Notes under the pieces: model-generated
What the model saw: the letters and a program-made list of their open reading frames with translations, nothing else
Told to the model about the DNA's origin: nothing
The model's database searches: none
Assembly: GCA_964579825.1 (NCBI GenBank)
Contig: CAZOHT010000010.1
Span: 36,624 to 100,623, forward strand
DNA: 64,000 nt
Direction: 5' to 3'
From: an uncultured Anaerolineaceae bacterium
GTDB lineage: Bacteria > Chloroflexota > Limnocylindria > Limnocylindrales > CSP1-4
Shown: positions 26,874 through 49,063 of the stretch, one piece after another
Layout of the letters: each line of letters opens with the position of its first letter
How positions within the stretch are numbered: the first letter of the stretch is position 1
Made by a program: the position numbers and the translations under genes

Positions 26874-26915
26874 CGCCGTGCGTTCCGCCCATCGACGCGG
26901 TCCGCGCCTCCCGAG

Positions 26916-27722: not shown

Positions 27723-27728
27723 CGGTCC

Positions 27729-31195: not shown

Positions 31196-31233
31196 GTCGC
31201 TGAGCGCGGGGCGGGTCAGGTCACCCCGTCACG

Positions 31234-31776: not shown

Positions 31777-31828
31777 CGGTCGGCCAGCGCGTCAGGTGAG
31801 GGAGGCCGTCGAGCCCGGTCCGATCCGA

Positions 31829-33082: not shown

Positions 33083-33162
33083 GCGCCCATGATAGGTGGC
33101 CGAGCCGTTCGGGAGCCGCTTCCATGTCAGGCACTGGTGCGGCCCGGCCACACCAGAGACGA

Positions 33163-34326
33163 TCAGTCGATCGACTCGAGGTGATCGGACAGGAACCCGA
33201 TGACGCGGTCGACCTCGGTGTCGCGCAGGGCCGGCGTGATCGGCAGGTTGACGATCCGGTGGCAGATCCCCTCGGCGATCGGGGCCTGTCCTGCGGCATA
33301 GCCCCACCGCTCGAGTCGGTCGACGACCGGATGGATCGGCGATACGAACCAGTCGCCGAGATCCACGCCGGCTTTCTCGCTTGCCGCGACGACGGTCGGG
33401 CGATCGGAGACGAGCAGCGGGTACCGAAGGAATGCGTGGACGATCCCTTCCGGTTCGGCTGGGACGGTTCGACCTCGATCGCGCAGCCAGGCGGAATACC
33501 GCCCCGCGATCGCTCGGCGCCGAGCCACCTCGGCGGCAAGATGCGGGACACGGTCCGCGCCGTATCCCGCCTGCCACGACGACAGGCCGGTGAGGAACCC
33601 GGCAGGCATCGTCGCCGTTTCGAGTTCATCCTGGCTCGACGAGCTGGGGACGAGTCCTCGCCGGCTGAGCGCTCGGTACGCGGAGCGACCGGTCCGGAAC
33701 AGGCGTCCGTGGCCGCCATGCCGCATCCCGAACACCAGGGTCCGCAACAGCGCGATCGAGGCCGACGAGGGAGCGGGCGCCTCCGCTTCGATCACCGCGA
33801 GGCGGGCCGCGATCGCCGGATCGGTGGCGACCGCGAACCCCCCGAGGCCGGTCGAGATCGTCTTGCTCCACTGGGTCGAGAAGAACGATGCCGGTGTGGA
33901 CGCGCCATTCGGACGATCACGGTAGGTGCCGCCCAGGCCATGCGTGCAATCGTCGATGACCCTGATATCGCGTGCCGCACCCAGGGACGTGAGGCTTGCG
34001 AGGTCGGCCGATAGCCCGAAGGTGTTCTGGGCGATGATCGCGCGGGTCCTCGGCCCGATGGCTGCCTCGACCGCGGCCGGATCGATCGTCAGGGTGGCCG
34101 GATCGATGTCGACATAGATCGGTGTCGCGCCGGTGTACAGGATCGCGTTGGGTACCGCGACACAGGTGAACGCCGGGAGGATGACCTCATCCCCGGGGCC
34201 GATGTCGCAGGCACGCAGGATCGCGTAAAGGGCCACGCGGCCCTTGGCGAACAGGAAGATCGATCCGGGCGGTACCCCGGTGACCTCGCCGACCCGCTCC
34301 CGGAACAGCGCCCGGCTATCGCTCAT
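33163..34326 (-). CDS. DegT-family aminotransferase-like protein (divergent second copy)
   Basis: GRVALYAILRA, EVILPAFTCVAV and FSTQWSKTISTGLGG (Lys in the PLP position). ATGA overlap with the upstream GT4. Confidence 0.7.
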   Translation of the reverse strand: MSDSRALFRERVGEVTGVPPGSIFLFAKGRVALYAILRACDIGPGDEVILPAFTCVAVPNAILYTGATPIYVDIDPATLTIDPAAVEAAIGPRTRAIIAQNTFGLSADLASLTSLGAARDIRVIDDCTHGLGGTYRDRPNGASTPASFFSTQWSKTISTGLGGFAVATDPAIAARLAVIEAEAPAPSSASIALLRTLVFGMRHGGHGRLFRTGRSAYRALSRRGLVPSSSSQDELETATMPAGFLTGLSSWQAGYGADRVPHLAAEVARRRAIAGRYSAWLRDRGRTVPAEPEGIVHAFLRYPLLVSDRPTVVAASEKAGVDLGDWFVSPIHPVVDRLERWGYAAGQAPIAEGICHRIVNLPITPALRDTEVDRVIGFLSDHLESID

Positions 34327-35612
34327 CGGCCGGCACCGAACAGCAGTGGGTCGTACTGACGGGCCAGCGTGGCATAGGACCGCTCACGCGCCACCCAGGT
34401 TCGCCCGTTCGACCCCATCGCCTGTCGCCGGTCTGTCGGTAGATCGCGCATCGACCGGATCGCGGCCGCCAGTGCAACAGCATCGTCCGGCGGGATCGTC
34501 AGCCCGCAGTCGGCCTCCTGGACCAGGTCGTTCGCTCCGTCCGCGGCGAGGATGATCGGGCGGGCGGCCGCCATGTAGTCATAGACCTTGTTCGGTGAGA
34601 TCCCGAATCGATACAGCGGACTCTTGTGATACCCGACGTAACAGACGTCGAATCCGCTCAGGGTAGACGGCACGTCGGCCTTCGGGATCGCGCCGACGAA
34701 CCGCACGGCCGGCAGGTCCGCCGCCAGCGACCGAAGGCGATCGCCCTCGGACCCCTGGCCGACGATGACGATCTCGATCCGCTCACCGTCGAGCAGCCGC
34801 GCCGCCTCGAGCAGGTTGTCGATCGCATTGGCGAGCGCCAGCGTCCCGACGAAGCCGACCCTGAAGGGCCGGTCCCCGTCTCCCGTCGTCGAAGGCGGCA
34901 CCGTTGCCGTCGTCGGCTCTGCCAGCACATCGGCACTGACACCGTTGGGGATGACGGTCAACTTGCCTGGATCGGCCCCGCGGTCGGCCAGGTGCGAGGC
35001 CAGAGCCGGCAAGACCGAGACGATCCGATCGGCGACCCGGTAGGCTCGATCCTCGAACCACTGCATCGTGAACACCAGCGGGTGCCGGGGCGACAGGCCA
35101 CCAAGCTCACGCAGGGTCAGCGGCCAGACGTCGCGGACCTCGAACAGCAGGCGACTGCCGAACCGTCGGGCCCAACGCGCTGCCGGGAGGATCGGGTACA
35201 AGGACGGCGACGACACGACGATCGCGTCAGGCTCCGGCAAGCGGCCCGTCGGCAGCCGGTACAGGCGCAACATGAACACGATCATGTTCCAGACTCGACC
35301 GATGCTGATCGCGCGCCGGTACGTCGGCACACGCACCCAGCAGTACGTGAGGCCATCCAGGGGCTCGACAGTGTAGGCTCCCGCAACGGCCGGTTGGCGG
35401 GCGAACAGATGGGAGTAGGACCCGGAGATGATGACGACGGTCGCGCCGAGCCGCACGAGCTCCCGCCCCAACTCGTAGTGGCGGAACTCCATCCCGTGGT
35501 CGGCGGACCCGGCGTACTGATTCACGAACCAGACCACACGCGGTCGCGGGTCATCTGGACCCGATGGGCGGACGTCGATCATCGGCGGGTCGCGAGCACC
35601 TCGGCGAGACAT
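34323..35612 (-). CDS. glycosyltransferase family 4 (WbuB-like)
   Basis: VVWFVNQYAG, FEVRDVWP, and the C-terminal GISPNKVYDYMAAARPIIL. ATG at 35582 is an alternative start. Confidence 0.8.
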   Translation of the reverse strand: MSRRGARDPPMIDVRPSGPDDPRPRVVWFVNQYAGSADHGMEFRHYELGRELVRLGATVVIISGSYSHLFARQPAVAGAYTVEPLDGLTYCWVRVPTYRRAISIGRVWNMIVFMLRLYRLPTGRLPEPDAIVVSSPSLYPILPAARWARRFGSRLLFEVRDVWPLTLRELGGLSPRHPLVFTMQWFEDRAYRVADRIVSVLPALASHLADRGADPGKLTVIPNGVSADVLAEPTTATVPPSTTGDGDRPFRVGFVGTLALANAIDNLLEAARLLDGERIEIVIVGQGSEGDRLRSLAADLPAVRFVGAIPKADVPSTLSGFDVCYVGYHKSPLYRFGISPNKVYDYMAAARPIILAADGANDLVQEADCGLTIPPDDAVALAAAIRSMRDLPTDRRQAMGSNGRTWVARERSYATLARQYDPLLFGAGR

Positions 35613-35712
35613 GGCAGCCTGGCGCTCAGGCGTACGCCAGCATGAAATGGTCGTCTCCGACTATACAGTCGGCCGATCGGATCGTTGACATGCTCCTTGA
35701 GGGGATCGATCT

Positions 35713-37086
35713 GTGACCGACGTCCGGACCGAGACCGAGGAACCGAACTCGGGTCAGGCCTTCTCCAACCGCGTCCTGATGTTGTTCGCCACCCAGGTCT
35801 TCACCGCGGGAATGGCCATCTTCAACGGCTTCCTCCTGGCCCGAGCCCTGGGTCCAAGCGCCAAGGGCGACTACTACCTGGTGACGCTGCTTCCTGCCAC
35901 CATCATGGTCTTCATCCAATTCGGTTTGCCGTCCGCCCTGAGCTTCTTCTCAGCACGGGGCCTCGTTGACCGGATCGTGTCCCGAACGCTGATCCTGACG
36001 GTCGCCCTCACGGGACCTGCCTTCGTGATCGTCATCGCGATCCTTCCGTTCCTCCAACAGACGATCGTCCAAGGACCCGACAGGTCGTTGATCCTGTTCT
36101 GTCTGCTGGCCCTGCCCTTGCTCCTGAACGCGACGTTCACGACCGCGGTGGTGATCGGGCGCCAAGCGGTGGGCTGGGCATCTGCTGTCTACGTCATCGT
36201 TGCCGCGAGTACGACAGCGCTGTTGGTCATCCTTGTCGTCATCTTGGATCTCGGACTGATGGGAGCCCTTGTGGCCTACCTACTCAACGCCGTGATCCTT
36301 GCAACCGGCTTCATCATCGGAGCCAAGCGGACGTCGGACCTTCCGCCTCGTACCGGCGTCGTCCGATACCGGGCGCTCTTCGGGTTCGGCCTGCGCCTGT
36401 ACCCCGGGAACCTCAGCCAGTTCCTGACGAATCGGGCCGACGTCTACCTCATCGCCTGGCTCATGGTGGCTCCATCCGCCCCGCTCGGCTACTACAGCAT
36501 GGGCGTCTCGATGGCAGAACTCGTCTTGTTCTTTCCGCGCGTCGTTTCGACCATCTTCTTCCCACACGTCTCACGCGCGACCAGGGAAGATGCCGATCGC
36601 CAAGTCCCTCGCGTCACACGGGTGACGTTGCTCCTGACGGCGTGCGTCGCGATCGCCATGGTTCCGACCGCGACGACCCTCATCCTGTGGCTGATCCCAG
36701 CGTTCACTCCCGCGCTCTCGGCCCTATATGTCCTCCTGCCCGGCGTCGCCGCCCTGAGCGTCTCCGAGGTGCTGAGTGGGTATGCGGCCGGCCTCGGACG
36801 AACCACCTTGACGTCCATGGTCAGCATCTCGGTGCTGATCGCGAACGTCGCCCTCAACATCGTGCTGATCCCGATCTACGGGATCGTCGGAGCGGCACTC
36901 GCGTCGCTGTTGACCTACACCTTCGCGGCCGTGACGTTCTCGGTGATCGCGTCTCGCCTAGCCGATACCCCGCTTCGGCGCTTCTGGATCCCACACATGG
37001 ACGACGTCCGATTCGTCGTGTCGACCTTGACGGCGCTGGGGCGACGGATAGCGGCTTCGCGGACCGGCGCCACCCGCACTGGGTGA
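35713..37086 (+). CDS. wzx: polysaccharide flippase, MOP superfamily (Wzx-like)
   Basis: 457 aa with about 12-14 TM segments and a typical Wzx N-terminus (NRVLMLFATQVFTAGMAIFNGFLLARALG). GTG start. GC content is visibly lower than in neighbouring genes. Confidence 0.8.
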   Translation: MTDVRTETEEPNSGQAFSNRVLMLFATQVFTAGMAIFNGFLLARALGPSAKGDYYLVTLLPATIMVFIQFGLPSALSFFSARGLVDRIVSRTLILTVALTGPAFVIVIAILPFLQQTIVQGPDRSLILFCLLALPLLLNATFTTAVVIGRQAVGWASAVYVIVAASTTALLVILVVILDLGLMGALVAYLLNAVILATGFIIGAKRTSDLPPRTGVVRYRALFGFGLRLYPGNLSQFLTNRADVYLIAWLMVAPSAPLGYYSMGVSMAELVLFFPRVVSTIFFPHVSRATREDADRQVPRVTRVTLLLTACVAIAMVPTATTLILWLIPAFTPALSALYVLLPGVAALSVSEVLSGYAAGLGRTTLTSMVSISVLIANVALNIVLIPIYGIVGAALASLLTYTFAAVTFSVIASRLADTPLRRFWIPHMDDVRFVVSTLTALGRRIAASRTGATRTG

Positions 37087-37120: not shown

Positions 37121-38656
37121 CTACAGCCCCGAGTTTCCGCCCCCGTCGACCATGTTGCCGGTGTCGTACGGCAATCCCTCGGAGCCCGTGGCCTTGAGGT
37201 TCCGATACACCCCACTCGCCTGATGGAAGTTGACCGAGACGTCGCCCTGACCGCAGTTGGTGATCGTCCATCCATCGAGGATCAGATCCGTGGTCGGGAC
37301 ATCCTCGTAGAACGCGTAGGCCAGGTTGGACGCGACGATGTCGGTGATGTGGATGGACGTCTCCTTGACCGTGCTGGAGTCGATCTGGATCCCGGACCAC
37401 GTGCGACCGGATCCCGTGATGTTCCATCGACTCAAGGTCAGGTTCGTATTGCCGCGGCCGCCGGCCATCGAGATGTAGGCGCCGTAGGTCTTGTACGCCT
37501 TGTCGGACGTCGGACCACGGGTGATGTTCCGGATCTTGATGTCCGTGATCGTCACGTTCTTGCTGCTGCGGATCTCGAAGATGCCGGCCTGGTCCAGGAC
37601 GTAGCCGTCGAACGTGAAGCCCTGCATCGTGATATTGCTGGCCAGGCTGTTCAGACCGAAGTAGAACTGCCCCCATCGGGTGGAGTCGCCGTTCCCGGTG
37701 AAGGTGACCGTAGCCCCAGCTTCTGGCCTGATGACCAGTCGGCTGGACCGGGCGACGTCGATGTAGATGGCGGGCAGCTTGTAGGTCCCGGCCCTGAACT
37801 CGATGACATCGACGTTCTCGTCGGCGATCAGGGCCTTCAACTGCGACGCGGTGCCCGACGTCGTGAATGTCTTGACACCCGCAGATGGAGCGACGGTGGG
37901 GGCGGCGGTCGGGGCGGCGGTCGGTGCCGTCGTCGGAGCGCTCGTGGGGGCTGCGGTCGGGGCTGCGGTGGGCGCGCTCGTGGGGGCTGCGGTGGGGGCT
38001 GCGGTGGGCGCACTCGTCGTAGCGGCGGTCGGTGTCGCCGTCGGCGCGGGCACCTCAGCGGCCACTGGCTCGACCGCGACCTTGTTGTTCCCGCGGATGA
38101 TGAACTTGTCGACCGCCACCGTCGGGTGGCCGTTCGTCGCCAGGGAGACCATCTGGAAGGTGTGGGTGCCGTAGCCGCTGAACAGCTGCTGGAAGACCAC
38201 GGTCGAAGCCACATAGCGGCTGGCATACATGTCGACCGTGTTCACGTATGCGCCGTCGATGTAGATCTTGGCCTCACCACGCGTCGGCCCGACCGGGCCG
38301 ACCCAGGCGAACCCGGTGCCCTTGAACGTGACCGTGGCGCCCGCCCCGCGCTGGTCGGTGGAGCGCACTCGGCCACCGCTGTAGCTGCGGTAGGAAACGC
38401 GCGTCCAGTGCCCGTTCCAGTCCACGGACGCGCTGTTCTCCTGGTAGGTCGTGACCTTGTAGTTGGTCGACCAGGCGGCGACGGAGCCGCCTGAACCGGA
38501 ACCTGCGAACACACCGACGGTCGGGATGATCAATCCGACGAGGACAAGGCCCATGAGTCCGGTGGCCGCCCAATCGCGCGCACCGCGCTTGCGTGGGGCC
38601 AGGCTTGGGGTTGGCTTGGGGGTCTCGTCGACCCAGTTCGATCCATCCCAATACAT
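37121..38656 (-). CDS. membrane-anchored CBM-like beta-sandwich plus Pro/Thr repeat linker plus beta-helix protein; paralog C
   Basis: Same architecture as 24086-25534: an N-terminal tail with WVDETP, a TM segment, a CBM-like domain (WNGHW...GATVTFKGTGFAWVGPVGPTRGEAKIYIDG), an (APTAAPTAAPTS)n linker and a divergent beta-helix (ITMQGFTF, VTITDIKIRNIT). Confidence 0.7.
   Translation of the reverse strand: MYWDGSNWVDETPKPTPSLAPRKRGARDWAATGLMGLVLVGLIIPTVGVFAGSGSGGSVAAWSTNYKVTTYQENSASVDWNGHWTRVSYRSYSGGRVRSTDQRGAGATVTFKGTGFAWVGPVGPTRGEAKIYIDGAYVNTVDMYASRYVASTVVFQQLFSGYGTHTFQMVSLATNGHPTVAVDKFIIRGNNKVAVEPVAAEVPAPTATPTAATTSAPTAAPTAAPTSAPTAAPTAAPTSAPTTAPTAAPTAAPTVAPSAGVKTFTTSGTASQLKALIADENVDVIEFRAGTYKLPAIYIDVARSSRLVIRPEAGATVTFTGNGDSTRWGQFYFGLNSLASNITMQGFTFDGYVLDQAGIFEIRSSKNVTITDIKIRNITRGPTSDKAYKTYGAYISMAGGRGNTNLTLSRWNITGSGRTWSGIQIDSSTVKETSIHITDIVASNLAYAFYEDVPTTDLILDGWTITNCGQGDVSVNFHQASGVYRNLKATGSEGLPYDTGNMVDGGGNSGL
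37883..38050 (-). repeat. in-frame Pro/Thr/Ala tandem repeat (about 36-nt period) encoding the interdomain linker
   Basis: The protein reads PAPTATPTAATTSAPTAAPTAAPTSAPTAAPTAAPTSAPTTAPTAAPTAAPTVAPS. On the plus strand this appears as repeated gggctgcggtsgg units. Confidence 0.85.
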
Positions 38657-38750
38657 CCGATCGGTGCTCCCTTCGGCAACCCGGCTGACCTCGTGGGCCC
38701 CGTGGCTTTGCGGCCCCGCCTCGCGACGGGTGTGCTATTTCGTGGGTTCG
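38657..38750 (-). promoter_or_regulatory. candidate c-di-GMP-I (GEMM-I)-like riboswitch leader, copy 2
   Basis: The reverse complement reads AUAGCACACCCGUCGCGAGGCGGGGCCGCAAAGCCACGGGGCCCACGAGGUCAGCCGGGUUGCCGAAGGGAGCACCGAUCGGAUG. In a hand alignment 73 of 82 nt are identical to copy 1. Differences fall in a loop or keep pairing (A-U to G-U). Confidence 0.6.
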
Positions 38751-39046
38751 ATCCCCGGGGTGAGCCCGGGACCGGTCCGCTAGTCTCCCCGCTGAGCCCG
38801 CCGAGCGCCATGGCGGGATGGTCCCGAGCGACCGGCAGCGAGCACGACCGAGAGGCTCGGACACCGATGTCCGCTCTGGTGCGGTCCGGACGGGTCCGGA
38901 CGCCGCAGTCACGGTCAGTAGTCCTACGCGCCGGCGGCACGGCTGACCGCTGTGGTCCGGTGCGTGTGCGCACACCGACTGCCATGCCGCCTCGCGAGCG
39001 TGGCCCGGGGCTCGCCGGCGTGGGCGCGGCCAGGCATCGGTGAGCG

Positions 39047-40324
39047 ATGATTGGCGGCGTGACCACCCTCCATGCGAACGCTGGGTCCAGCCCGGACCTC
39101 CCGCCCGCCCTCTCGCTGCCCGCGCGTGCCGACATCGCGATCATCGGGGCCGGGATCCTCGGACTCGCGGTCGCGCGCGAGTTGCTCGCGAGGCATCCGG
39201 ATGCACGGATCGCCGTCCTCGAACGCGAACGCAGGCTGGCCGCCCACCAGACCGGGCGCAACAGCGGCGTGCTGCATGCCGGCCTGTACTACACGCCCGG
39301 ATCGCTCAAGGCCCGCCTCACCCGCCAGGGTCAGGTCGCGCTCGAGCGATATGCCACCGAGCGCGGGATCGCCTTCGAGCGCTGCGGCAAGCTGGTGGTG
39401 GCGCTGGACGCGTCGGAGCTCGGCGCACTCGACGCCCTGCGACGGCGCGCAGAGGCGAACCAGGTCCCCGGGCTGGAGTCCGTCGATCGGGATCGGATCC
39501 GCGAGATCGAGCCGCACGCCGAAGGCATCCGCGGCCTGTGGAGCCCGGGCACGGGGATCATCGACTATGCCGCGGTGGCCGCGGCATTCGCCGACGACGT
39601 GCGCGCCGCGGGCGGCACGATCCACCTGGACCATGAGGTCACCACGATCACGCAGTCGCCCGAGGGCCTGCTGCTGGCAACCAGGCAGGGCGAGATCCTT
39701 GCCGGCCGGGTCATCGCGTGCGCCGGGCTGTGGTCGGATCGCGTCGCGGCGATGAGCGGGACGGGCGGGCAGGAACGGATCATCCCGTTCCGCGGCGACT
39801 ACTACACGCTCACGCCGACCGCCCGATCGCTCGTTCGCGGCCTGATCTACCCGGTCCCCGATCCACGCTTTCCGTTCCTCGGGGTCCACTTCACCCGGCG
39901 GATCGACGGCGAGGTCTGGGCCGGCCCGAACGCCGTCCTGGCGTTCGCTCGAACCGGGTATCGACGCCGCGACGTCGACCTGCGCGACCTGGCGGGCATC
40001 GCGTCCAGTCGCGGGTTCCTGCGCCTGGCGCGACGCTTCTGGCGCATGGGAGCCGCGGAGATGTGGCGCGACTGGTCCAGGACGGCGTTCCTGCGTGAAC
40101 TGCAGCGCTTCGTCCCGGCCATCCAGGCCGAAGACCTCACGTTCGGCCCGTCCGGCATCCGCGCCCAGGCCGTGGACCTGGACGGCACGCTGGTCGACGA
40201 CTTCCGGTTCCGAGGCACGGACCGGATCCTGCACGTCGTCAACGCCCCATCACCCGCCGCCACCGCCTCGATGGCCATCGCCGAGGAGATCGCCGACCGC
40301 GCCGACGACCGCTTCGGCCTCTGA
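39047..40324 (+). CDS. lhgO: L-2-hydroxyglutarate oxidase/dehydrogenase (LhgO family FAD enzyme)
   Basis: DIAIIGAGILGLAVAREL, AHQTGRNSGVLHAGLYY, IIPFRGDYY and NAPSPAATAS match LhgO-family hallmarks. The N-terminal 27 aa may be over-extended. Confidence 0.8.
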   Translation: MIGGVTTLHANAGSSPDLPPALSLPARADIAIIGAGILGLAVARELLARHPDARIAVLERERRLAAHQTGRNSGVLHAGLYYTPGSLKARLTRQGQVALERYATERGIAFERCGKLVVALDASELGALDALRRRAEANQVPGLESVDRDRIREIEPHAEGIRGLWSPGTGIIDYAAVAAAFADDVRAAGGTIHLDHEVTTITQSPEGLLLATRQGEILAGRVIACAGLWSDRVAAMSGTGGQERIIPFRGDYYTLTPTARSLVRGLIYPVPDPRFPFLGVHFTRRIDGEVWAGPNAVLAFARTGYRRRDVDLRDLAGIASSRGFLRLARRFWRMGAAEMWRDWSRTAFLRELQRFVPAIQAEDLTFGPSGIRAQAVDLDGTLVDDFRFRGTDRILHVVNAPSPAATASMAIAEEIADRADDRFGL

Positions 40325-40338
40325 TCGGGACCCACAGG

Positions 40339-41067
40339 TCAGCCGGCGGAGACCGTCCTGACCTCGTTGCCGACGATCACGCACACCTCGTCGACGTCGT
40401 CCAGACGCGCCGTGATGAAGTCGTAGTCGCGCATCTGGTCCGTTCGACGCAGGTAGGCCACGCTGTTGCCGCCGGCGATGGCGCCGACCGGCTGGTGCTC
40501 CCAGCGCGCCGCGATCTCTGCCGACGCCGCGTCCGCCGCACGGAATCCGGACTGCATGAGCCGGGCCGCGAGCCACGCACAGCCGAGCTGATCCTCCTCC
40601 CGGAACTCTCCGCGGCTGCCGGCACCGATGATGGCGACGCGATCGTGGCGCGCAGCGACGTGGCGCGCTGTCGCCGACACGTTCCTCAGGCACGCGGCGT
40701 AGGCCGCTTCGGCCGGCGCCGACGCCAGCATCAGCTCCGTCCCCGAGGTCGACAGCATCACCAGCGGGCGCTCGACGTCCTGGCGCTCGGTCAGGTCCGC
40801 CGGGCTGTTGTTCATGTCGAACCCGTACGGCATGTGACCACCCAGCTCGCCGGCGAGGATCGAGTCCGGATGGGCGTCACGCAGTCGCACGGCGTCGTCG
40901 AGATCGGCCGCGATCAGGCAGCGACGCCCGGACACCGCGGCCGTCACGGCCAGGGTCGTCGCCCGGATCACATCGATCGCCACGATGGCGTGGTCGTCCC
41001 GGTAGCGAGTCGCCGATGCCGGGAAGCAGTCGATGACGAAGATCCGATCCCGTGCCGAGGCCGCCAC
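40339..41067 (-). CDS. comB: 2-phosphosulfolactate phosphatase (ComB family)
   Basis: VAIDVIRATT...AGELGG...GFDMNNSP...ST(S)GT are ComB-family motifs. GTG at 41067 lies 11 nt after the comA stop. Confidence 0.75.
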   Translation of the reverse strand: MAASARDRIFVIDCFPASATRYRDDHAIVAIDVIRATTLAVTAAVSGRRCLIAADLDDAVRLRDAHPDSILAGELGGHMPYGFDMNNSPADLTERQDVERPLVMLSTSGTELMLASAPAEAAYAACLRNVSATARHVAARHDRVAIIGAGSRGEFREEDQLGCAWLAARLMQSGFRAADAASAEIAARWEHQPVGAIAGGNSVAYLRRTDQMRDYDFITARLDDVDEVCVIVGNEVRTVSAG

Positions 41068-41078
41068 GTCGTTCGGCC

Positions 41079-41915
41079 TCAACCCGGCCGGCGGGGCCGG
41101 AGGTTGTCGTGCGCGAAGGCGTCGGAGTGGAGACCACGTCGATAGATCTCCACGCGGAGGATCTCCTCGAGCCGGATATTGCACAGGTGCACGTCCGGCC
41201 CGAAGTGGTTCAACAGGGCGAACTGGCTGGCCTTGTTGGGGGCCTCGAAGAGCGCGGTGTCGAGTCCGAAGGCCTCCGCGAAACGATCGGCCGTCGCCGG
41301 AACGAAGTCGCCACGCTCATCAAAGCAGCCGATGCCGACCGCGCTCTCCCGGGCTTCGATGATGACCTGGCGGGCACCGGCGTCGAGCCACTGGCGCCCC
41401 TGGGCGATCAGGCCCGACACGACGTCCGAGCTGAAGGCACCGTCGTGCTTCTTCCCGAGCTCGAACTGCACCTGCAGGCCCCGGTCCCGCGCCAGGCGCA
41501 TCACGTCGGCGGGTGCGAGCGGCATGTCGGTGAACCCCTCACCGGCCTCGATGCCGGTGAACCCGATGTCGGCGACGAGGTCGAGGTAGAACGGGAGCTC
41601 GCCTTGCTGGACCGCGATCTCGAACGGTCCGCCGCCGGTGACCGTCGGCACGCCGAACGCCCGGCACGCGGCGACCTTCCAGCGGGTGACCCGCTCGTCG
41701 CCGATCTGCCAACCGGCCATGGAGATCTTCATGGTCTCCATCAGGTGACGGCTCTGCACCAGGTGACCGTGGAACGTGTACGGGTCGTAGCCGGGATCGA
41801 ACGGGCACGTCGCCGGGCGCAGGTCCGGCACGCCGATACGCTCGAGATAGTCCCGGGTGTGGACGGTCCCGACCGGGACATCCATGGGAGGCAGTGCGTC
41901 GATCCGGTCATCCAT
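41079..41915 (-). CDS. comA: phosphosulfolactate synthase (ComA family)
   Basis: 278 aa. MKISMAGWQI, PTVTGGGPFE, GFTGIEAGEGF and IIEARES resemble (2R)-phospho-3-sulfolactate synthase. The start shares 1 nt with the upstream stop. Confidence 0.75.
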   Translation of the reverse strand: MDDRIDALPPMDVPVGTVHTRDYLERIGVPDLRPATCPFDPGYDPYTFHGHLVQSRHLMETMKISMAGWQIGDERVTRWKVAACRAFGVPTVTGGGPFEIAVQQGELPFYLDLVADIGFTGIEAGEGFTDMPLAPADVMRLARDRGLQVQFELGKKHDGAFSSDVVSGLIAQGRQWLDAGARQVIIEARESAVGIGCFDERGDFVPATADRFAEAFGLDTALFEAPNKASQFALLNHFGPDVHLCNIRLEEILRVEIYRRGLHSDAFAHDNLRPRRPG

Positions 41916-43117
41916 CAGGCGATCCCTCCGCTGGACTTTCGCTGCACGAAGCCACGCATGGCGACCCGGAACGGCGCGAGGTCGTCGCGGGCGAAGTAGG
42001 CGGTCTCACGGACACCGAGGAGCGACGTGGCCCAGTCGCGGATCGTCAGCTTGCCATCCCGCCGGTACTGCAGCGCCGAGTCGACGTCCGCACCCTCCAC
42101 CATCCACCGTCGTCCCTCCATCGGCTCGGCCTCCGGCACGGGCTGGCCGGTCAGGTCCAGGTACATGGCGCGCGCGACGTCGAGGCCACCCTTCGAGACG
42201 AACAGGCGGAAGGTCGCACCGATCCTGGGGTTGGCATCGAGGACCTTGTACTGACCGTCACGGGCATCGAACCGGTATCCGATGTCCAGGATCCCTCGAT
42301 AGCCGATCGCCTTCATCCACTTGACCGTCGTGTCGCGGACCGCGTCGTTCGCCTGGCACACCCCTAGGCTCGTCACGCCGGTGTAGACCGGCGACTGCCG
42401 CAGCTTCCGACCTGTGAAGCCCATGCGCGCATCCGACGCCTCGTCGAAGTAGCCGTTGAACATCCAGACATCGTGTTCTCCGCCCGGGATGAACTCCTGC
42501 AGCATCAGATTCGGCTCGTCGGGATCCTCCATGGCCACGTAGCGTCGGACGAGTTCGTCCGGGTCGTCGACGATGACCATCTTGAGTCCGGTCCGAAGCT
42601 TGAGCCGGTTGCCGTCGATCCCCTTCAACATGACCGGAAACTCGGCGGTGGCCGCGAATCGGGTCACGTCGTCAACGTCCTTGGGGAAGACGACATCGGG
42701 CGTCGGTACGCCATGCTCACGCGCCAGGAAGTGCATCGAACGCTTGTCGGCCAGGGCCGCGGCCAGTCCGGCTGGCTGTCTCGGAAAGAGGTACCACTCC
42801 CCCAACACATCGGCGTACGCCGACACCAGGAGGGAGGTCTGGTCCCACGTCGGGATCAGGATGGTCCCTCCACCGAGCTGGCGACCCAGGTCGAGGAGGT
42901 AGTCGACGGTGGCCTCAGGTGCGGCCGCAGCCAGGTCGAACACGTGACGTCGCGCGAGGTAGCGCGAGCGCGCAGCCGCACGGGGCGGGTTCGCATCGAC
43001 GGCGTGGACGGGGATCCCAAGCCGTCCCAGGCTGCGGATGATCCCGAGGCAGCCGTAGTTCTGCGCGCTGAGCACCAGCACGGGCGTGGTGGTATCGAGA
43101 GGCGGATATGGAGGCAT
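41915..43117 (-). CDS. ATP-grasp carboxylate-amine/thiol ligase (COG3919-like)
   Basis: VLVLSAQNYGCLGIIRSLG N-terminus, FPVMLKG, LMLQEFIPGG and KVLDANPRIG are ATP-grasp P-loop and Mg-site-like segments. ATG at 43117. Confidence 0.75.
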   Translation of the reverse strand: MPPYPPLDTTTPVLVLSAQNYGCLGIIRSLGRLGIPVHAVDANPPRAAARSRYLARRHVFDLAAAAPEATVDYLLDLGRQLGGGTILIPTWDQTSLLVSAYADVLGEWYLFPRQPAGLAAALADKRSMHFLAREHGVPTPDVVFPKDVDDVTRFAATAEFPVMLKGIDGNRLKLRTGLKMVIVDDPDELVRRYVAMEDPDEPNLMLQEFIPGGEHDVWMFNGYFDEASDARMGFTGRKLRQSPVYTGVTSLGVCQANDAVRDTTVKWMKAIGYRGILDIGYRFDARDGQYKVLDANPRIGATFRLFVSKGGLDVARAMYLDLTGQPVPEAEPMEGRRWMVEGADVDSALQYRRDGKLTIRDWATSLLGVRETAYFARDDLAPFRVAMRGFVQRKSSGGIA

Positions 43118-43181
43118 CGCTAGTACGGTAACGGTTGGTTCGCTGTGTGGTGATGGACCACGGTGTCTGCACGCAACGACA

Positions 43182-44522
43182 TCACTCGAAGACCTGGAGC
43201 GGAGCGCACGGGTAGACGACCACCGACAGGTCGTCGCGCCCGTCCTGTTGCCTCCGAACGAGGTCGACGACCTCGGCCCAGTTGGGCACGATCTGCATGC
43301 CCGGGAGGCCATCCGGGAGGGGGCGTTCCAGGTGGACGGTCTGGTACATGAGGATCGGCAGTGCGGGCCCCGACGCAACGGCACGACGTCGGCGAGGCCG
43401 GAGGCGCCTGAGACCGGACGCCCCAAGGCCCACCAGTCCGACCTGACCCTGCGCCCACGCGACCTCGATCCGGCGACGGACCCGTGCGATCCCGGTGAGC
43501 GGTGCGAGCGGATACAGGCCGTGGTGACCGATCCCCTCTGGACACGCGGCGATGAGGATCCGCGACGCGGATCGACTGGCGTGCTGGAGGGGGATGATCC
43601 CCTTGCTACGCATGAACGTGGCTGAGATGTCCATGGGATACGCATTCGCGATCACGACATCTGCGTTCGCCGGCATCGCGGCCGCGTACGCCGACCTCGA
43701 GTAGGCGGATGCCTCCGCGTAGGCGACAGCCGGATCACCAGCCACGATCCGGACGATCCGGCGCTGGCCGTCGACGTGCGCCATGACCATCCAGCGCAGA
43801 CCGACCAAACGGGCGATCTCATCCAGGTCGGCGCGAAAGTCGTTGGCTACGTCGTACCGACCGCCGGCGCCGGCACGGCCGAAATGCAGCCGAGCGATCG
43901 ACCGCCGGCCGAGGATCCCAAGGGCGAGCTTGCTTCCACCGCCGAAGCCGGCCGTGTGCTGGGGATACACGCCGCCGATGCCGATGACCAGGTCGGCAGC
44001 CGCGGCCGCGCGGTTGACGACCACGGGCGTCCCCATCCGGCTGACCCCGATCTTCACGCAATCGCCCTGGTCGTCATGCGAGATGACTCGACAGCCGACG
44101 TCAGCGCCCACCTTGCGCGTGAGTCGCTCCCGGGACAACGGGCCGTGGGTGCCTGTCGCGACGAGGACGGTCACCTGGGATCGTGCGACGCCCGCTGCGT
44201 CCAACTCAGCGAGCAGGGCCCCGAGGATCGTCTCGACCGGTGTCGGACGGGTCAGATCGTCGACCACGATGACGACGGTTCGCGCTCCGTGGGCGATGGC
44301 GGCGAGCGGCTCGGCACCGACGGGGGCACGCACGGCGGCGACGATCTCGTCGAGCTCGAGCGGGCGCGGGAGCTCCGGGGCATGGACGGTCACCTGCCAG
44401 CCCGCCGGAAACGGAAGGTCGACCATGTCATCGCCGTACCAGGCGGCCGTCCTGATCGCGACCGACGACCCCGGGCGCGCCGGACCGACCGGCGTCAGGA
44501 GCGCGGTGTCCTTCAGGTTCAT
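43182..44522 (-). CDS. LarA-like (lactate racemase N-terminal domain/DUF2088) nickel-pincer-dependent 2-hydroxyacid racemase/epimerase homolog
   Basis: VVIVVDDLTRPTP, VLVATGTHG and VYPQHTAGFGGGSKLALG match LarA-family segments carrying the catalytic His and cofactor-tethering Lys, as I recall them. ATGA overlap with the upstream ATP-grasp. Confidence 0.7.
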   Translation of the reverse strand: MNLKDTALLTPVGPARPGSSVAIRTAAWYGDDMVDLPFPAGWQVTVHAPELPRPLELDEIVAAVRAPVGAEPLAAIAHGARTVVIVVDDLTRPTPVETILGALLAELDAAGVARSQVTVLVATGTHGPLSRERLTRKVGADVGCRVISHDDQGDCVKIGVSRMGTPVVVNRAAAAADLVIGIGGVYPQHTAGFGGGSKLALGILGRRSIARLHFGRAGAGGRYDVANDFRADLDEIARLVGLRWMVMAHVDGQRRIVRIVAGDPAVAYAEASAYSRSAYAAAMPANADVVIANAYPMDISATFMRSKGIIPLQHASRSASRILIAACPEGIGHHGLYPLAPLTGIARVRRRIEVAWAQGQVGLVGLGASGLRRLRPRRRRAVASGPALPILMYQTVHLERPLPDGLPGMQIVPNWAEVVDLVRRQQDGRDDLSVVVYPCAPLQVFE

Positions 44523-45628
44523 GCCTTCTGGACGCCGAGGAGCGCTCGCAGGACAGTCTCTGCCACGGCGCATGATCCACCATTCGCTGGCCGGCAATGG
44601 TGGTGCAGGCCGGGCGTGGTGTTGACCTCGAGAAAGACCCCGCCCGATCCCGCAAGGGATCGTGTCGGATCATTCGTCAGCACGTCGACGCCGGCGAAGC
44701 GCGTCCCGATCGCGGTCACGAGCGGCGCGACCTCATCGATCAGATCCCGTCCGACGAGCGCGGTGACGTCCTCGTCGTAGATCGTGCGCTGTTCGTGGCT
44801 CGAGACGGTGTCCGGGCGGACCCACCTGGCCACGATCGAGTCACCGGCTGGCACGATGTCCTCAGTCGACAGCCCCTGACCAGCGAGGGTCTGCTCGATG
44901 CGCCGATCCACCGACACGCCCTTGGCGGTCAGTAGCTCGATGATCGAGGAGGTCCCGTCCCCGACGATCCGGATCCCGGAGCGCCGGACGGCATGGATCA
45001 TCTGCCCATCGAGGAACAGCAATCGGACCGATTCCGCGGGGACCATCCGCTCCACGACGACCCGGTTCGCGAACAGGGAGGCGAGGGCCAGCGCGTCTGC
45101 GAGCGCGTAGCGCGAGCGGACATCGATGGAGACCCCGATGCCCGATCCCGTGCCCTCGGCCGGCTTGACGACCAGCGGGGCTTCGTCGACGGATAGGGTG
45201 CGCCAGATCCGACCCAGGTCCGCCCGATCGAACGTTCGCGGCCCAGGGATCGGGATCCCGAGGCGGCTGGCCACGTCGTAGCAGAACGACTTGTCCCCGG
45301 CCAGACCCAGCACGACCGGGTCATCGAACTGGACCAGGTAGGTCATGACGCGAGTCTTCCGGCCCCCGAGCGTGATCTCGCAGACCTCCTGCGACAGCGG
45401 ACCGCACGTGGCACCGATCGCGGTGGCGGCACCCTGCCACATGGCCATGTACTCCTCGCGTCGGTCCTGCACGTAGATCGTCCGGCTGCGACCGGTCGCG
45501 ATGGCGAGGCTGCGGCGGACGCGCGCTGACCAGCGCAGACCCCTGAAGATCATGCCCGACGCGATCGAATGTGGGGCCTTGACTCGGATCCGACGAACGC
45601 GATGGTCTGGGGACATGGGCTCGAGCAT
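44519..45628 (-). CDS. ATP-grasp ligase (cyanophycin-synthetase/RimK-like stand-alone domain)
   Basis: LVVKPAEGTGSGIGV and GVFLEVNTTPGLHHH are ATP-grasp signatures. The start is taken at ATG 45628 (or 45616), downstream of the stop at 45652. GAGGG lies 5 nt upstream. Confidence 0.7.
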   Translation of the reverse strand: MLEPMSPDHRVRRIRVKAPHSIASGMIFRGLRWSARVRRSLAIATGRSRTIYVQDRREEYMAMWQGAATAIGATCGPLSQEVCEITLGGRKTRVMTYLVQFDDPVVLGLAGDKSFCYDVASRLGIPIPGPRTFDRADLGRIWRTLSVDEAPLVVKPAEGTGSGIGVSIDVRSRYALADALALASLFANRVVVERMVPAESVRLLFLDGQMIHAVRRSGIRIVGDGTSSIIELLTAKGVSVDRRIEQTLAGQGLSTEDIVPAGDSIVARWVRPDTVSSHEQRTIYDEDVTALVGRDLIDEVAPLVTAIGTRFAGVDVLTNDPTRSLAGSGGVFLEVNTTPGLHHHCRPANGGSCAVAETVLRALLGVQKA

Positions 45629-45651
45629 ACCGACCCTCGCCCCCAGGCGTG

Positions 45652-46632
45652 CTACGGGGCGTACGTGACGCTGACCGCCAGGTAGTCGAGCGAGAAGTCG
45701 CGGTTGGCGTTCGTGGACGCATCGATGATCCGGACTCGGAAGTTGGTCGTGCTCAACTCGGAGAGCGTCCAGGATCGGCCCCAGGTGTCGTTCGTGGCGC
45801 CGAACACGTAGCTGACCTCGTTGGCGACCGTGATCGCCTGCGTCTTGATCGTCGTCCACGTGGCGCCGCCGTCCCACGACAGCTGGGCACACAACGTGTT
45901 CGTGCTGCTCGCGACCGAGTCGAGCTTGAGGTCCGCCTGGACGCGGATGCCGTCGACGTCCGCGATCGTTCCCGGCAGACCGAAGGCGAAGCCCCAGAAG
46001 CGGTGGCGATCCTTGGTCGTTCCCGGGACCGCGCCCGTGCCGCAGGCTGCCAACGTGCCGGTGCCCGTATTCGTGTCCACGGCGAACCGGTTGTCGCTGA
46101 CGCAGGCACGGGTCGGATTCGTCTGGTAGCCGTTGTTGTCGCCGGCGCCGGTCGTATCCGCTGCCTGGTTGACGCACGGCGCGAAGGTCGTCGACGTGGC
46201 CGTGACCACGGCCGTCGCCTGGTTGCTGACCGCGCTGGTCCAGCTGGCGTAGGTCGTGCGCACCACGTAATACCAGGTGCCCGCACCAGGGCTGTCGGTG
46301 GCGGTCGTGGCCGAACCGGGGGTGACGGTCGAGACGAGCGTGTAGCCGCTGCCGCTGGTCGCGGATCGATAGATGCCGTAGCCGGTGGCATAGGCATCCG
46401 CACTCGGCGTCCAGGTCAAGGTCACGGTCGCACCGCCCGTCGCGGCGACGCCGGTCGGCGGCGCGAGGGTGTCGGCGGCGAATGAGGCGGTGGACGTCGC
46501 GGTGTCCGTGAAGCGCGCAAGGGTCCTGGTCGCCGGGATCCCGACGACCAGGAGGAGCGCGACAGCGATCAGGAACGGGCCGCGACGGCGCACGCGTTCA
46601 GGCCCCCAGCCGAGGGGGCCGCGACGGCGCAC
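45652..46632 (-). CDS. secreted protein with SipW-type signal peptide, FN3-like domain and unknown C-terminal domain
   Basis: The N-terminus ...FLIAVALLLVVGIPATRTLARFTDTATSTASFAADTL has the A-x-F-(T/N)-D...F..(G/D)T(L/V) pattern of TasA/camelysin-type signals. An FN3-like segment follows (TVTLTWTPSADAYATGYGIYRS). The 39-bp duplication creates an equivalent alternative start at GTG 46593. Confidence 0.7.
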   Translation of the reverse strand: MRRRGPLGWGPERVRRRGPFLIAVALLLVVGIPATRTLARFTDTATSTASFAADTLAPPTGVAATGGATVTLTWTPSADAYATGYGIYRSATSGSGYTLVSTVTPGSATTATDSPGAGTWYYVVRTTYASWTSAVSNQATAVVTATSTTFAPCVNQAADTTGAGDNNGYQTNPTRACVSDNRFAVDTNTGTGTLAACGTGAVPGTTKDRHRFWGFAFGLPGTIADVDGIRVQADLKLDSVASSTNTLCAQLSWDGGATWTTIKTQAITVANEVSYVFGATNDTWGRSWTLSELSTTNFRVRIIDASTNANRDFSLDYLAVSVTYAP

Positions 46633-46662
46633 GCGTTCAGGCCCCCAGCCGAGGGGGCCGCG
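46577..46662. repeat. perfect 39-bp tandem duplication (about 2.2 copies) across the sipW stop / downstream start junction
   Basis: Positions 46577-46623 are identical to 46616-46662 (offset 39, hand-checked base by base). The unit contains the last sipW codons, TGA, a 4-nt spacer and GTG CGC CGT CGC. Confidence 0.9.
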
Positions 46663-47338
46663 GATCCTCGGTCGCCCAGCGACGCTGGCGCATCCGCCGT
46701 TCGCGCGAGGCGCGCACGACCTCCCGGGCCGTGGCGCGTTCGTAGACGTACGCGATCGTCGGCGCGGGCGGCACGTCCGGCGGTCGGTCGGCCGGCACGG
46801 GCGTCGCGACGAGCGAGGCCCGCGGCTCCAGCAGGACGCCGAGCAGCAACAACACGAGGCCGAACGAGATGACGAACAGGATGCCGCTCGGCGCGGAGTA
46901 CAGGGTCAGGAGGTAGCCGGCGAACGGGATGCCGACGGCCACCCGACCGATGACGGCCACGGCCGGCGTCAGCGATGGATCCGGGGTCGCGTTGGCGTCA
47001 CCCTGCGTCTCGAGCCAGAGCCCGCCGTCGCGTTCGGCGAGCCGGATGATCCGGTGCGTGAAGACGGCGCGGTCGGGCCCGCTGCGCAGGCTGACCACGT
47101 CACCGACGGCCAGGTCCGCCGGGGCGACCTGGTCGAGGACCACAGCCGCGCCGATGGGGATCGACGGCTCCATGGACGGCCCCGCGACCACGAGGGTCGG
47201 GTGGCCGGTCAGGGGCAGGACGCGACCAAGCACGAGGACCCCCAGCGACACCACGACGAGCGCCAGCAGGAGCCCATCGAGGAGTCGCCGGAGGACGGTG
47301 ACCGAGCGGTCGCGGACCGCGCGGTTCGCGCTCGTCAT
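46637..47338 (-). CDS. sipW: signal peptidase I, SipW (archaeal/ER) type
   Basis: VVAGPSMEPSIPIGA (catalytic Ser box), FTHRII (His box) and TQGDANATPD (GDxN box). An N-terminal TM segment and a C-terminal TM segment are present. Confidence 0.85.
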   Translation of the reverse strand: MTSANRAVRDRSVTVLRRLLDGLLLALVVVSLGVLVLGRVLPLTGHPTLVVAGPSMEPSIPIGAAVVLDQVAPADLAVGDVVSLRSGPDRAVFTHRIIRLAERDGGLWLETQGDANATPDPSLTPAVAVIGRVAVGIPFAGYLLTLYSAPSGILFVISFGLVLLLLGVLLEPRASLVATPVPADRPPDVPPAPTIAYVYERATAREVVRASRERRMRQRRWATEDPRPPRLGA

Positions 47339-47350
47339 CGTGATCCCGGG

Positions 47351-47941
47351 TTACGGGTTGTTGGCGGTCTGCTCGGCAGCGAAGGTGAACGTCACCGCGG
47401 AGGTGATCCCCTGCAGGGCGTCCCCGGTGGCCAGCGGCAGATCGACCCGGAAGCACAGGACCTCGTTGGCCAGTCCGGCCAGCGTGCGGTCGCCCGCCTG
47501 GGCACCCTGGGTCGCACTGCCGATGGCCGCACCGTTCAACGCGGTCGTGGCGACCACGATCGTGCCGTCGAACGTCGCGCAGCTCGTGCCGAGCGTTCGG
47601 ACCGTCAGGGTCAGGGCGGTCCCGAGGGTGTTGGTCGCCGTCGTGCTCATGGCATACCGGAACGTCGCCGTTCCCGCGTTCGCGATCGTCATCGCCTGGG
47701 TGTTCGTGTCGCCGGGCATCATGCCGGTCACCGTGAACGCGACGGTCGGGCTGGACGTGATGTCGACGGTGCCAGCGGCGAACGTCCCCGTGGACGCGGC
47801 GGTATCGGTGAAGATGGCCAGCGACATGGCCCCCGCTCCGGCGCTGAGCACGGAGAGGCCGAGGATCGCGGCGAGGATCCGCCGTCGATGGGCCCCGGGC
47901 CGGGCAGGCTGAACCAGATGCGCGCGCTCGGTTTCGGACAA
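47351..47941 (-). CDS. TasA/camelysin-family (peptidase M73-like) secreted fibre protein
   Basis: The signal ...LSAGAGAMSLAIFTDTAASTGTFAAGTVDI parallels B. subtilis TasA (GGTWAAFNDIKSKDATFASGTLDL). The mature part is beta-rich and Thr/Ala-rich. TTG start follows GAAGGAGA. Confidence 0.75.
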   Translation of the reverse strand: MSETERAHLVQPARPGAHRRRILAAILGLSVLSAGAGAMSLAIFTDTAASTGTFAAGTVDITSSPTVAFTVTGMMPGDTNTQAMTIANAGTATFRYAMSTTATNTLGTALTLTVRTLGTSCATFDGTIVVATTALNGAAIGSATQGAQAGDRTLAGLANEVLCFRVDLPLATGDALQGITSAVTFTFAAEQTANNP

Positions 47942-48183
47942 CGGAGACTCTCCTTCGACATGCAGCGGGACGCTGGATCCCCCGACGCCGATCGATGGGT
48001 TCGTGGTTCTCGCCAGCCCGGTCTCGTGCGTCTGCCGCCAGTGAACCGGACGGGAGCCCTCGTCGTCAGGGGACGCAGGGACTACCGGGGGCGGTACCTT
48101 GGTCCCGCGAATCGGCTCGCCTGATGCGACACCGGCGCGACCCTGGCCGGATCGGTGCGTCGGCGCGCTGGGCCATTGGTCCT

Positions 48184-48203
48184 GCCCGCCTCGACGGGCG
48201 GGC
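48184..48203 (-). terminator. possible GC hairpin terminator after the enoyl-CoA hydratase gene
   Basis: GCCCGCC-tcgacg-GGCGGGC lies 8 nt downstream of the stop at 48212. No U-tract. Confidence 0.3.
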
Positions 48204-48211
48204 CCCCGCGG

Positions 48212-49063
48212 TCACGCGGTCGGCGTTTCTCCGAGCCCGCTCTCGGCGAGGCGCTCGTCGTAGCGTCGGTCGCGCCAGGCGAGGGCCGCCTTCAGCCCGT
48301 CGCGCTTGACGATGGTGTCCCATTCGCGCTGCTCGGGCGTGTCGGCGGCATTGATGATCGCGCCGAGGTCCAGCCCGGCCTGGACGGCCAGCCGGAACCC
48401 GGCCGCGTCCATCGCCCGGTTGAGCATCGCCTTCGTCGGGCCCATGACCTCGGGCGGCGTCCGTGCCAGGCGATCGGCCAGGGCGTCCACCTCGGCGTCG
48501 AGCCGATCGGCCGGCACGACCCGGTTGATGAGGCCGATCCGCTCGGCTTCGACGGCGTCGATGAGGTCCCCCGTCAGCAGCAGCTCGCGGGTCTTCTTCT
48601 GGCCGATGAGATAGGGCATCAGCAGGGTCACCGGCGCGGAGCCGTAGCGGATCTCCGGCTCGCCGAGCTTCGTGCCCTCGGCCGCGACCACCAGGTCGCA
48701 CGCCATGGCCAGTTCGAGCCCCCCGGCGAGGGCGTAGCCGTGGATCTGGGCGATGACCGGCTTCGGCGAATCGAGGATGCGGAGCGTCGCCGCGACATCC
48801 ACGGCCAGCGCCGAGCGCCAGCCGACCGGGCCGCCCATCCCCCCGTCGACCTCCTCGGCGAGGTCGTAGCCCGCCGAGAAGGCCCGGCCCGCACCGGCGA
48901 TGACGATGACCCGGACCTCCGGATCGGCATCGGCCGCCTCCACCGCGGCGACGAGCTGCTCGACGAGCTCCCCGGACAGGGCGTTGAGCTTGGCCGGCCG
49001 GTTCAGCGTGAGCCGGACGCCCCACGGGGTCGACGCCGACAGGACCAGCGCGTCGTCAATCAT
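48212..49063 (-). CDS. enoyl-CoA hydratase/isomerase (crotonase family)
   Basis: LNRPAKLNAL, AGAGRAFSAGYDL and IHGYALAGGLELAMACD (oxyanion-hole motifs). ATG at 49063. Confidence 0.85.
   Translation of the reverse strand: MIDDALVLSASTPWGVRLTLNRPAKLNALSGELVEQLVAAVEAADADPEVRVIVIAGAGRAFSAGYDLAEEVDGGMGGPVGWRSALAVDVAATLRILDSPKPVIAQIHGYALAGGLELAMACDLVVAAEGTKLGEPEIRYGSAPVTLLMPYLIGQKKTRELLLTGDLIDAVEAERIGLINRVVPADRLDAEVDALADRLARTPPEVMGPTKAMLNRAMDAAGFRLAVQAGLDLGAIINAADTPEQREWDTIVKRDGLKAALAWRDRRYDERLAESGLGETPTA

Follow-up and report, generated by a model that had tools for sequence, protein, structure and literature searches.

To our knowledge, sulfolactate has been described as an intermediate of coenzyme M (CoM) synthesis, as a free solute of spores, and as a catabolic intermediate. 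In methanogens, ComA and ComB catalyze the first two steps of the CoM pathway, and the YitD and YitC proteins of Bacillus subtilis serve the corresponding route in spores, where free sulfolactate is the end product. In the bacterial degradation of sulfolactate, the "racemase" consists of two opposing dehydrogenases (SlcC/ComC). A racemase is paired with a ligase in Enterococcus faecium, where an aspartate racemase and a D-aspartate ligase (Aslfm) add D-Asp to the peptidoglycan precursor. Here we describe a five-gene block on the minus strand (positions 40339–45628) of a 64,000-nucleotide stretch of contig CAZOHT010000010.1 from an uncultured Anaerolineaceae bacterium, hereafter the window. Its genes stand in the order AG2, LarAH, AG1, ComA, ComB, where AG1 and AG2 are ATP-grasp ligases and LarAH is a LarA homolog. 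As in the methanogen and B. subtilis routes, the two Com families are encoded by adjacent genes and sulfolactate is their expected product. The locus differs from those routes in its lack of downstream CoM enzymes, in its ATP-grasp partner, in family scores that fall under the equivalog cut-offs, and in belonging to a clade found in non-methanogenic soil phyla. We regard it as probable, if only modestly so, that the five genes constitute a single biosynthetic operon for the production and conjugation of 3-sulfolactate; we are more confident that the genes are functionally linked, and less confident of the acceptor.

The window has a G+C content of about 70%, and third-position GC was used for choosing the real genes. 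AG2 (44519–45628, 369 aa) resembles the G domain of cyanophycin synthetase, RimK and GshB, and is predicted to be an accessory second ligase. LarAH (43182–44522, 446 aa) is a predicted nickel-pincer nucleotide (NPN)-dependent 2-hydroxy-acid racemase with 3-sulfolactate as its proposed substrate, and AG1 (41915–43117, 400 aa) is a predicted carboxylate-amine ligase. The last two genes encode a ComA-like (2R)-phospho-3-sulfolactate synthase family protein (PF02679; 41079–41915, 278 aa) and a ComB-like 2-phosphosulfolactate phosphatase family protein (PF04029; 40339–41067, 242 aa). The AG2 stop overlaps the LarAH start by 4 nt and the AG1 stop overlaps the ComA start by 1 nt, with gaps of 64 nt between LarAH and AG1 and 11 nt between ComA and ComB. 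All five gene calls were reproduced exactly by gene callers on identical metagenome contigs, and all five products are exact entries in a public protein collection. The block is operon-like, and we read it as a single operon because neighboring genes either overlap or stand close together, and because independent contigs gave the same calls. A promoter and terminator scan of 38600–48400 was uninformative.

The association of these genes was followed across genomes in two directions. A ComA-seeded scan, limited to one genome per species, found 240 relatives; 80 loci were retained, and 64 of these have at least 3 kb on both sides. The nearest ComA relative comes from a Chloroflexia metagenome-assembled genome (MAG) at 95% identity, and the rest are 62–78% identical. 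The relatives are found in Chloroflexota, Acidobacteriota, Gemmatimonadota, Bacteroidota/Ignavibacteria, Nitrospirota, Deltaproteobacteria, Bathyarchaeia and one MAG labelled Methanomicrobiales; the loci come from species-level genomes of at least seven phyla. ComB was adjacent to ComA and on the same strand at every one of the 64 long loci, and an AG1 ortholog (at least 40% identity) lay on the ComA strand at 62/64. A SAM (S-adenosylmethionine) methyltransferase was present at 30/64, LarAH at 11/64 and AG2 at 6/64. Given this difference between the near-constant ComB and AG1 and the sporadic LarAH and AG2, the conserved core is ComA-ComB-AG1, with LarAH, AG2 and the SAM methyltransferase as optional accessories. 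Within the clade, ComA is 62–78% identical between bacterial phyla and Bathyarchaeia (loci L013–L092), which is unusually high and suggests strong constraint, horizontal spread, or both.

In the other direction, a metagenome scan seeded with a LarAH clade profile gave 80 loci with 38–62% identity, 17 of which had at least 4 kb on both sides. At these well-flanked loci ComA and ComB accompanied LarAH in 16/17 and AG1 in 14/17; two locus pairs look redundant, which leaves ComA at roughly 14 of 15 independent LarAH loci. Across the clade, LarAH neighbors a methyltransferase (27/80 loci) or AG2 (20/80), never both, which suggests two alternative tailoring routes. In L010 and L011 the genes overlap in the order methyltransferase-LarAH-ComA-ComB. 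Recurring as they do in 160 independent loci, these gene associations are not due to chance. The preliminary description of this DNA had proposed that the operon makes sulfolactate, possibly inverts its C2, and then ligates it once or twice; that proposal is now supported by gene context in both directions.

Profile searches placed the two Com proteins in their families over nearly their whole length. ComA matched PF02679 with 140.5 bits against a gathering score of 25.2 (profile positions 16–243 of 243), and ComB matched PF04029 with 122.9 bits against 26.4 (positions 14–222 of 226). The Methanocaldococcus jannaschii ComA structure 1qwg aligned to our ComA with 104.6 bits, nearly full length (query 35–268, chain 15–249) and with the conserved blocks retained; the window protein is nearer to this enzyme than to B. 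subtilis YitD (47.7 bits). ComB scored 59 bits against 1vr0. Together with the fold models below, these family searches bear out the gene set that had been assigned to 40339–45628 beforehand, namely ComA, ComB, a LarA-like protein and two ATP-grasp enzymes.

LarAH scored 146.3 bits with the Pfam Lar_N profile, far over the gathering score, and its best match in the Protein Data Bank (PDB) is the malate racemase Mar2 (6d6z). Its AlphaFold2 (AF2) model (mean predicted local distance difference test, pLDDT, 87.7) has the two-domain LarA fold, with a Foldseek E-value of 2e-30 and template modeling (TM) scores of 0.72–0.76 to LarA structures, at an identity to Mar2 of about 22–23% in structural alignments. 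In LarA, H108 and H174 are the catalytic histidines, K184 is the lysine that tethers NPN, and H200 is the nickel-ligand histidine. LarAH residues R92, H126, H189, K198 and H213 align with LarA R75, H108, H174, K184 and H200; R92, H126, K198 and H213 are invariant among 50 clade members, and 46 of the 50 retain H189. Every residue that binds NPN or acts in catalysis is thereby present in LarAH. The two motifs that had been picked out earlier as the catalytic-His and cofactor-Lys regions, LVATGTHG and QHTAGFGGGSKLALG, are both present and align to LarA H108 and to H174/K184, respectively. LarAH thus shares with the LarA superfamily, and with Mar2 (LarAH6) in particular, the fold, the counterparts of these five residues, and the adjacency of cofactor genes in its relatives, since larB, larC and larE adjoin LarAH clade members in L007, L095, L137 and L166. 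In L095, larC, larB and larE lie just downstream of an AG2-LarAH pair.

The proposed substrate, too, is comparable to that of Mar2: sulfolactate is malate with a sulfonate as isostere, and both are 2-hydroxy acids of a C4-like diacid type. Apart from the low identity to Mar2, LarAH differs from LarA at the residues that follow the catalytic histidine, which in the clade are S/T and then T/A/V in place of LarA F175/F176, and in an extra Arg305, which the clade alignment shows to be near-invariant in the substrate loop. It also falls under every curated cut-off for NPN subfamilies (lactate racemase, malate racemase LarAH5/6, LarAH10, LarAH14–16 and hexonate epimerase), with 153.5 bits against a cut-off of 460 for NCBIfam LarA, the lactate racemase. 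From context and the conserved catalytic residues, we infer that LarAH is an NPN-dependent 2-hydroxy-acid racemase of a previously unassigned subfamily.

AG1, the third member of the core trio, is weakly recognizable as an ATP-grasp protein by sequence (Pfam CPSase_L_D2, 25.6 bits), and Foldseek identified its AF2 model (pLDDT 92.7) as a canonical three-domain ATP-grasp fold. Its structural neighbors include biotin carboxylase, PurK, L-amino-acid ligases and PylC, with E-values down to 3e-17, and its Mg/ATP-binding residues are conserved (K165, D294, N296 and R298 invariant in 50 orthologs). As to the substrate, a PDB sequence search and Foldseek returned generic ATP-grasp neighbors alone. The orthologs found beside ComA-ComB show 44–79% identity and carry the source annotations "D-aspartate ligase" (JGI) or "carboxylate--amine ligase". 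Fusions of a methyltransferase to AG1 are common (P0257, P0262, P0265, P0266, P0269 and P0328) and tie this tailoring enzyme to AG1. A further fused open reading frame (ORF), AG1-ComA P0366 (679 aa), was not used as Rosetta-stone evidence; it comes from contig_575 of MAG MFD04651.bin.2.158 (L004/L013), and is probably an artifact, because many genes of this long-read MAG are fragmented and the fusion would arise from a 1-nt indel at the ATGA overlap.

AG2 scored far under the cut-offs of its NCBIfam matches (NF010623 for cyanophycin synthetase, 120.7 bits against 877; TIGR03103, 85.7 bits). Against cyanophycin synthetase CphA1 (7lgm) it scored 81 bits over residues 191–472 only, that is, the G domain. 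Cyanophycin synthetase, with its N, G and Mur-ligase-like M domains, has about 870–930 aa, whereas AG2 has 369 aa and matches the G domain alone; its identification as a cyanophycin synthetase was therefore rejected.

In its logic, the operon recalls the E. faecium system, in that a racemase and an ATP-grasp ligase would put a small C4-type acid on the amine of an envelope precursor. Here the racemase would be a nickel-pincer hydroxy-acid enzyme and not a pyridoxal-phosphate-independent amino-acid racemase, and the acid would be a sulfonated hydroxy acid made de novo. The net interconversion of (R)- and (S)-sulfolactate would be the same as that of the SlcC/ComC pair, which proceeds through sulfopyruvate; that pair is catabolic, NAD(P)-dependent and composed of two enzymes, in contrast to the single NPN enzyme proposed here in a biosynthetic context. 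A precedent for glycan decoration by an ATP-grasp enzyme is the C-terminal amidoligase of Campylobacter jejuni Cj1438, which acts in capsule synthesis (PMC11800379). Both systems would decorate a surface polysaccharide through an amide bond formed by an ATP-grasp enzyme. In C. jejuni the sugar (glucuronic acid) gives the carboxylate and a small amine is added, whereas here the small acid would give the carboxylate and the sugar the amine.

The surroundings of the operon point to a surface glycan. A biosynthesis cluster for such a glycan lies 3 kb away in the window (21446–37086) and contains, by Pfam, Wzy, an epimerase, three family 4 glycosyltransferases (GT4), a GINT1_N-like protein, Bac_transf, VanZ, two DegT aminotransferases and Wzx. 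In L005 and L094 the region directly upstream of AG2-LarAH is occupied by orthologs of these genes, as is the region directly downstream of ComA-ComB in L015. For a wider survey, all ORFs of the 80 ComA loci were clustered and representatives scanned with Pfam. The commonest neighbors were GT4, Bac_transf, CapD-type dehydratase, DegT, GNAT, polysaccharide deacetylase, Wzy, Wza and Wzc, and at least two glycan gene families were present at 31/64 long loci. About a dozen Bryobacterales/Terriglobia carry the genes on one strand in the order Wzy-GT4-GNAT-Bac_transf-DegT-CapD-x-DegT-like-x-ComA-ComB-AG1, and the window's DegT1 and DegT2 are counterparts of both aminotransferase types in these operons. 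Between the amino-sugar genes and ComA in the Bryobacterales/Terriglobia operons stand two protein clusters without a Pfam match, c10 (about 314 aa) and c7 (about 355 aa), which we observed in L041, L047, L052, L058, L065, L067–L069, L074, L076 and L090 (about 6.4–10 kb). The c10 and c7 proteins could perform additional steps in this decoration.

Put together, these elements suggest the following pathway. ComA would join sulfite to phosphoenolpyruvate (PEP) to give the 2-phospho acid (2R)-phosphosulfolactate, and ComB would take off the phosphate to leave (R)-sulfolactate, both reactions being those expected from family membership. LarAH could then interconvert the C2 enantiomers of sulfolactate by means of an internal hydride shuttle. 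In the fourth step AG1 would activate the carboxylate of sulfolactate as an acyl phosphate and couple it to an amine, a role suggested by its ATP-grasp fold and by its near-obligate linkage to ComA-ComB. AG2 might make a second amide bond and so add another unit or an amino acid. To judge by the context, the acceptor is most likely an amino sugar that the DegT enzymes of the nearby glycan cluster produce by amination, in which case the product would be a glycan with an acyl group whose C-sulfonate is permanently anionic. Chemically, the steps are consistent with one another, and the conserved linkage supports the chain.

A broader proposal, which we hold tentatively and judge to fall short of probable, is that ComA-ComB-AG1 constitutes a widespread, unrecognized pathway that places a 3-sulfolactyl amide on surface glycans. 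The LarAH clade would then be the first sulfolactate racemase to depend on the nickel-pincer cofactor and would fix the stereochemistry of the decoration, and the methyltransferase and AG2 would be alternative tailoring enzymes. Hosts of the pathway may be uncultured soil and sediment Acidobacteriota, Chloroflexota, Gemmatimonadota, Bacteroidota/Ignavibacteria, Nitrospirota and Bathyarchaeia. In a full-text literature search, sulfolactate and nickel-pincer did not occur together in any paper, nor did phosphosulfolactate synthase and ATP-grasp; searches for sulfolactyl, sulfolactoyl and sulfolactamide retrieved only papers that mention free sulfolactic acid, and sulfolactate goes unmentioned in two LarA-superfamily surveys, PMC7583248 included. 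While the enzyme families are known, the module and its proposed product appear to be undescribed. With a conserved ligase partner, sulfolactate would acquire a fourth role, that of a building block joined to other molecules. If the proposal is true, the nickel-pincer LarA superfamily would acquire a class of sulfonated substrates, and a function could be given to a large subfamily that so far has no assignment. There would also be an explanation for a set of highly conserved genes in soil and sediment phyla that are abundant and mostly uncultured. Should the acceptor be a surface glycan, the cells would carry a permanently charged sulfonate that sulfatases could not remove, with a bearing on matrix chemistry, metal binding, recognition by phages and predators, and organosulfur cycling.

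Several findings weigh against a sulfolactate-conjugating operon, or against parts of it. ComA scored 147.8 bits with TIGR03849, under the equivalog cut-off of 280; the best NCBIfam score of ComB was 79.4 bits, under a cut-off of 330, and ComB missed all equivalog cut-offs. The best NCBIfam match of LarAH, malate racemase LarAH6, reached 204.2 bits against a cut-off of 500. Because all three proteins score under the NCBIfam equivalog cut-offs, their substrates are extrapolated: they are members of their families, and family membership and context suggest the exact substrates. The ComA and ComB assignments of the preliminary description accordingly stood at the Pfam gathering scores and did not reach the NCBIfam equivalog cut-offs. 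In LarAH, the S/T-T/A/V pair fits no characterized LarA specificity group, the lactate, malate, 2-hydroxyglutarate and gluconate signatures all being different. Malate racemases carry H/Q and K where LarA1 has W358/T359 (PMC11770544), and the sequence and profile alignments of LarAH end near LarA residue 337, short of these positions; as candidates for their equivalents, the invariant W415 and the non-conserved W of "EVAWAQ" were not told apart. Finally, as had been noted earlier, the 64-kb window holds no larB, larC or larE (tblastn with LarBCE from L007, best E-value 0.02).

Other findings against it concern the acceptor, and these bear on the strongest alternative, in which the same enzymes make a soluble product, such as a sulfolactyl-amino-acid or a dipeptide-like anionic solute that serves as an osmolyte or is excreted as a metabolite. 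The operon itself contains no glycosyltransferase, and at about half of the long ComA loci no glycan genes were seen. A soluble product would also suit AG2, given its similarity to enzymes for the joining of amino acids (the cyanophycin synthetase G domain, N-acetylglutaminylglutamine synthetase and GshAB), and AG1, whose structural neighbors include the L-amino-acid ligases and PylC already mentioned. We nevertheless consider it rather unlikely: the trio is embedded in single-strand glycan operons of many Acidobacteriota, in Chloroflexota relatives both halves of the operon directly adjoin orthologs of glycan genes from the window, and the neighbor clusters of the 80 loci include no transporter or exporter with a consistent link to the module.

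A second alternative divides the operon into two independent modules that merely stand side by side, with AG2-LarAH acting on another 2-hydroxy acid (malate, glycerate, lactate or 2-hydroxyglutarate) and ComA-ComB-AG1 acting on sulfolactate. The main caveat for the sulfolactate assignment of LarAH belongs here. Its closest relatives (60–62% identical; L005, L006 and L093–L095) are AG2-LarAH pairs, and ComA/ComB were not found in the 7–10 kb downstream in L005, L006 and L095, nor on the 2–4 kb contigs L093 and L094, so LarAH could act on a different hydroxy acid. Moreover, most ComA-ComB-AG1 loci lack LarAH and most lack AG2, and the best characterized match of LarAH is a malate racemase. Against such a division stand the presence of ComA and ComB at nearly all well-flanked LarAH loci of the wider clade, the intimate overlapping gene order of L010 and L011, the position of LarAH between AG2 and AG1 in the window, and its scores far under the malate racemase cut-offs. 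On balance, the division into two modules seems to us decidedly improbable.

The preliminary description had itself offered a different partner for LarAH, the L-2-hydroxyglutarate oxidase encoded at 39047–40324, convergent to the operon, with 2-hydroxyglutarate as the shared substrate. The identity of the oxidase is secure (NF008726, 524.5 bits against a cut-off of 299), 14 nt separate the end of its gene from the ComB stop codon, and 2-hydroxyglutarate racemases do occur in the LarA superfamily (PMC7583248). Yet the oxidase lies on the opposite strand, and LarAH has S/T and T/A/V after the catalytic histidine where 2-hydroxyglutarate racemases are reported usually to have Y and F (PMC11770544). 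The adjacency was seen only in the window's lineage (identical in L002; 89% for the oxidase in L004/L013) and at 0/159 other related loci. This partnership fails because the adjacency is limited to that lineage, and we give it hardly any credence. That the operon is the start of a CoM pathway, as its ComA and ComB might suggest, can be dismissed: in line with the earlier description, neither ComC (Ldh_2) nor TPP (thiamine pyrophosphate)-type ComDE was found among the window ORFs (Pfam scans, with precomputed Pfam calls on an identical contig for three upstream genes), no ComC, ComDE or Xcb family occurs among the frequent neighbor clusters of the 80 related loci, the host is a Chloroflexota MAG, and the conserved partner is an ATP-grasp ligase rather than a CoM enzyme.

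Upstream of the operon, on the same strand, lie three genes that encode a camelysin/TasA-like protein (47351–47941), a SipW-type signal peptidase (46637–47338) and a 326-aa secreted protein with a TasA-like N-terminus (45652–46632); PF12389 and TIGR02228 are the family matches within this group. Successive gaps in the run from the camelysin-like gene through the SipW-type and 326-aa protein genes to AG2 are 12, 4 and 23 nt, and the TasA/SipW genes may form one 8-gene transcript with the operon. Because the linkage was seen only in the window's lineage (L001, L004/L013), we treat it as lineage-specific context outside the conserved module. The 326-aa protein has a 13-aa insertion relative to an otherwise 99% identical copy in L001.

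Elsewhere in the window, a minus-strand gene at 37121–38656, between the glycan cluster and the L-2-hydroxyglutarate oxidase, encodes a 511-aa low-complexity PT-repeat protein with weak matches (PT repeat, GltJ-like). A plus-strand cassette at 6360–11150 encodes an NAD-dependent epimerase/dehydratase, a small carrier protein (PP-binding), an acyl-CoA-dehydrogenase-like protein and a DUF1839 protein, and may be another acyl-decoration module near the glycan genes. At 16389–18489 there is a divergent pair of genes for a 4-hydroxyphenylacetate 3-hydroxylase-like oxygenase (HpaB) and a flavin reductase. Genes for a Lys-AminoMut_A-like protein, an O-methyltransferase (Methyltransf_3) and a metallo-beta-lactamase-fold protein are common to 586–6194 of the window and 14462–19211 of L005; since these gene types occur in both, the window and L005, both from Chloroflexota, are broadly syntenic around the glycan cluster.

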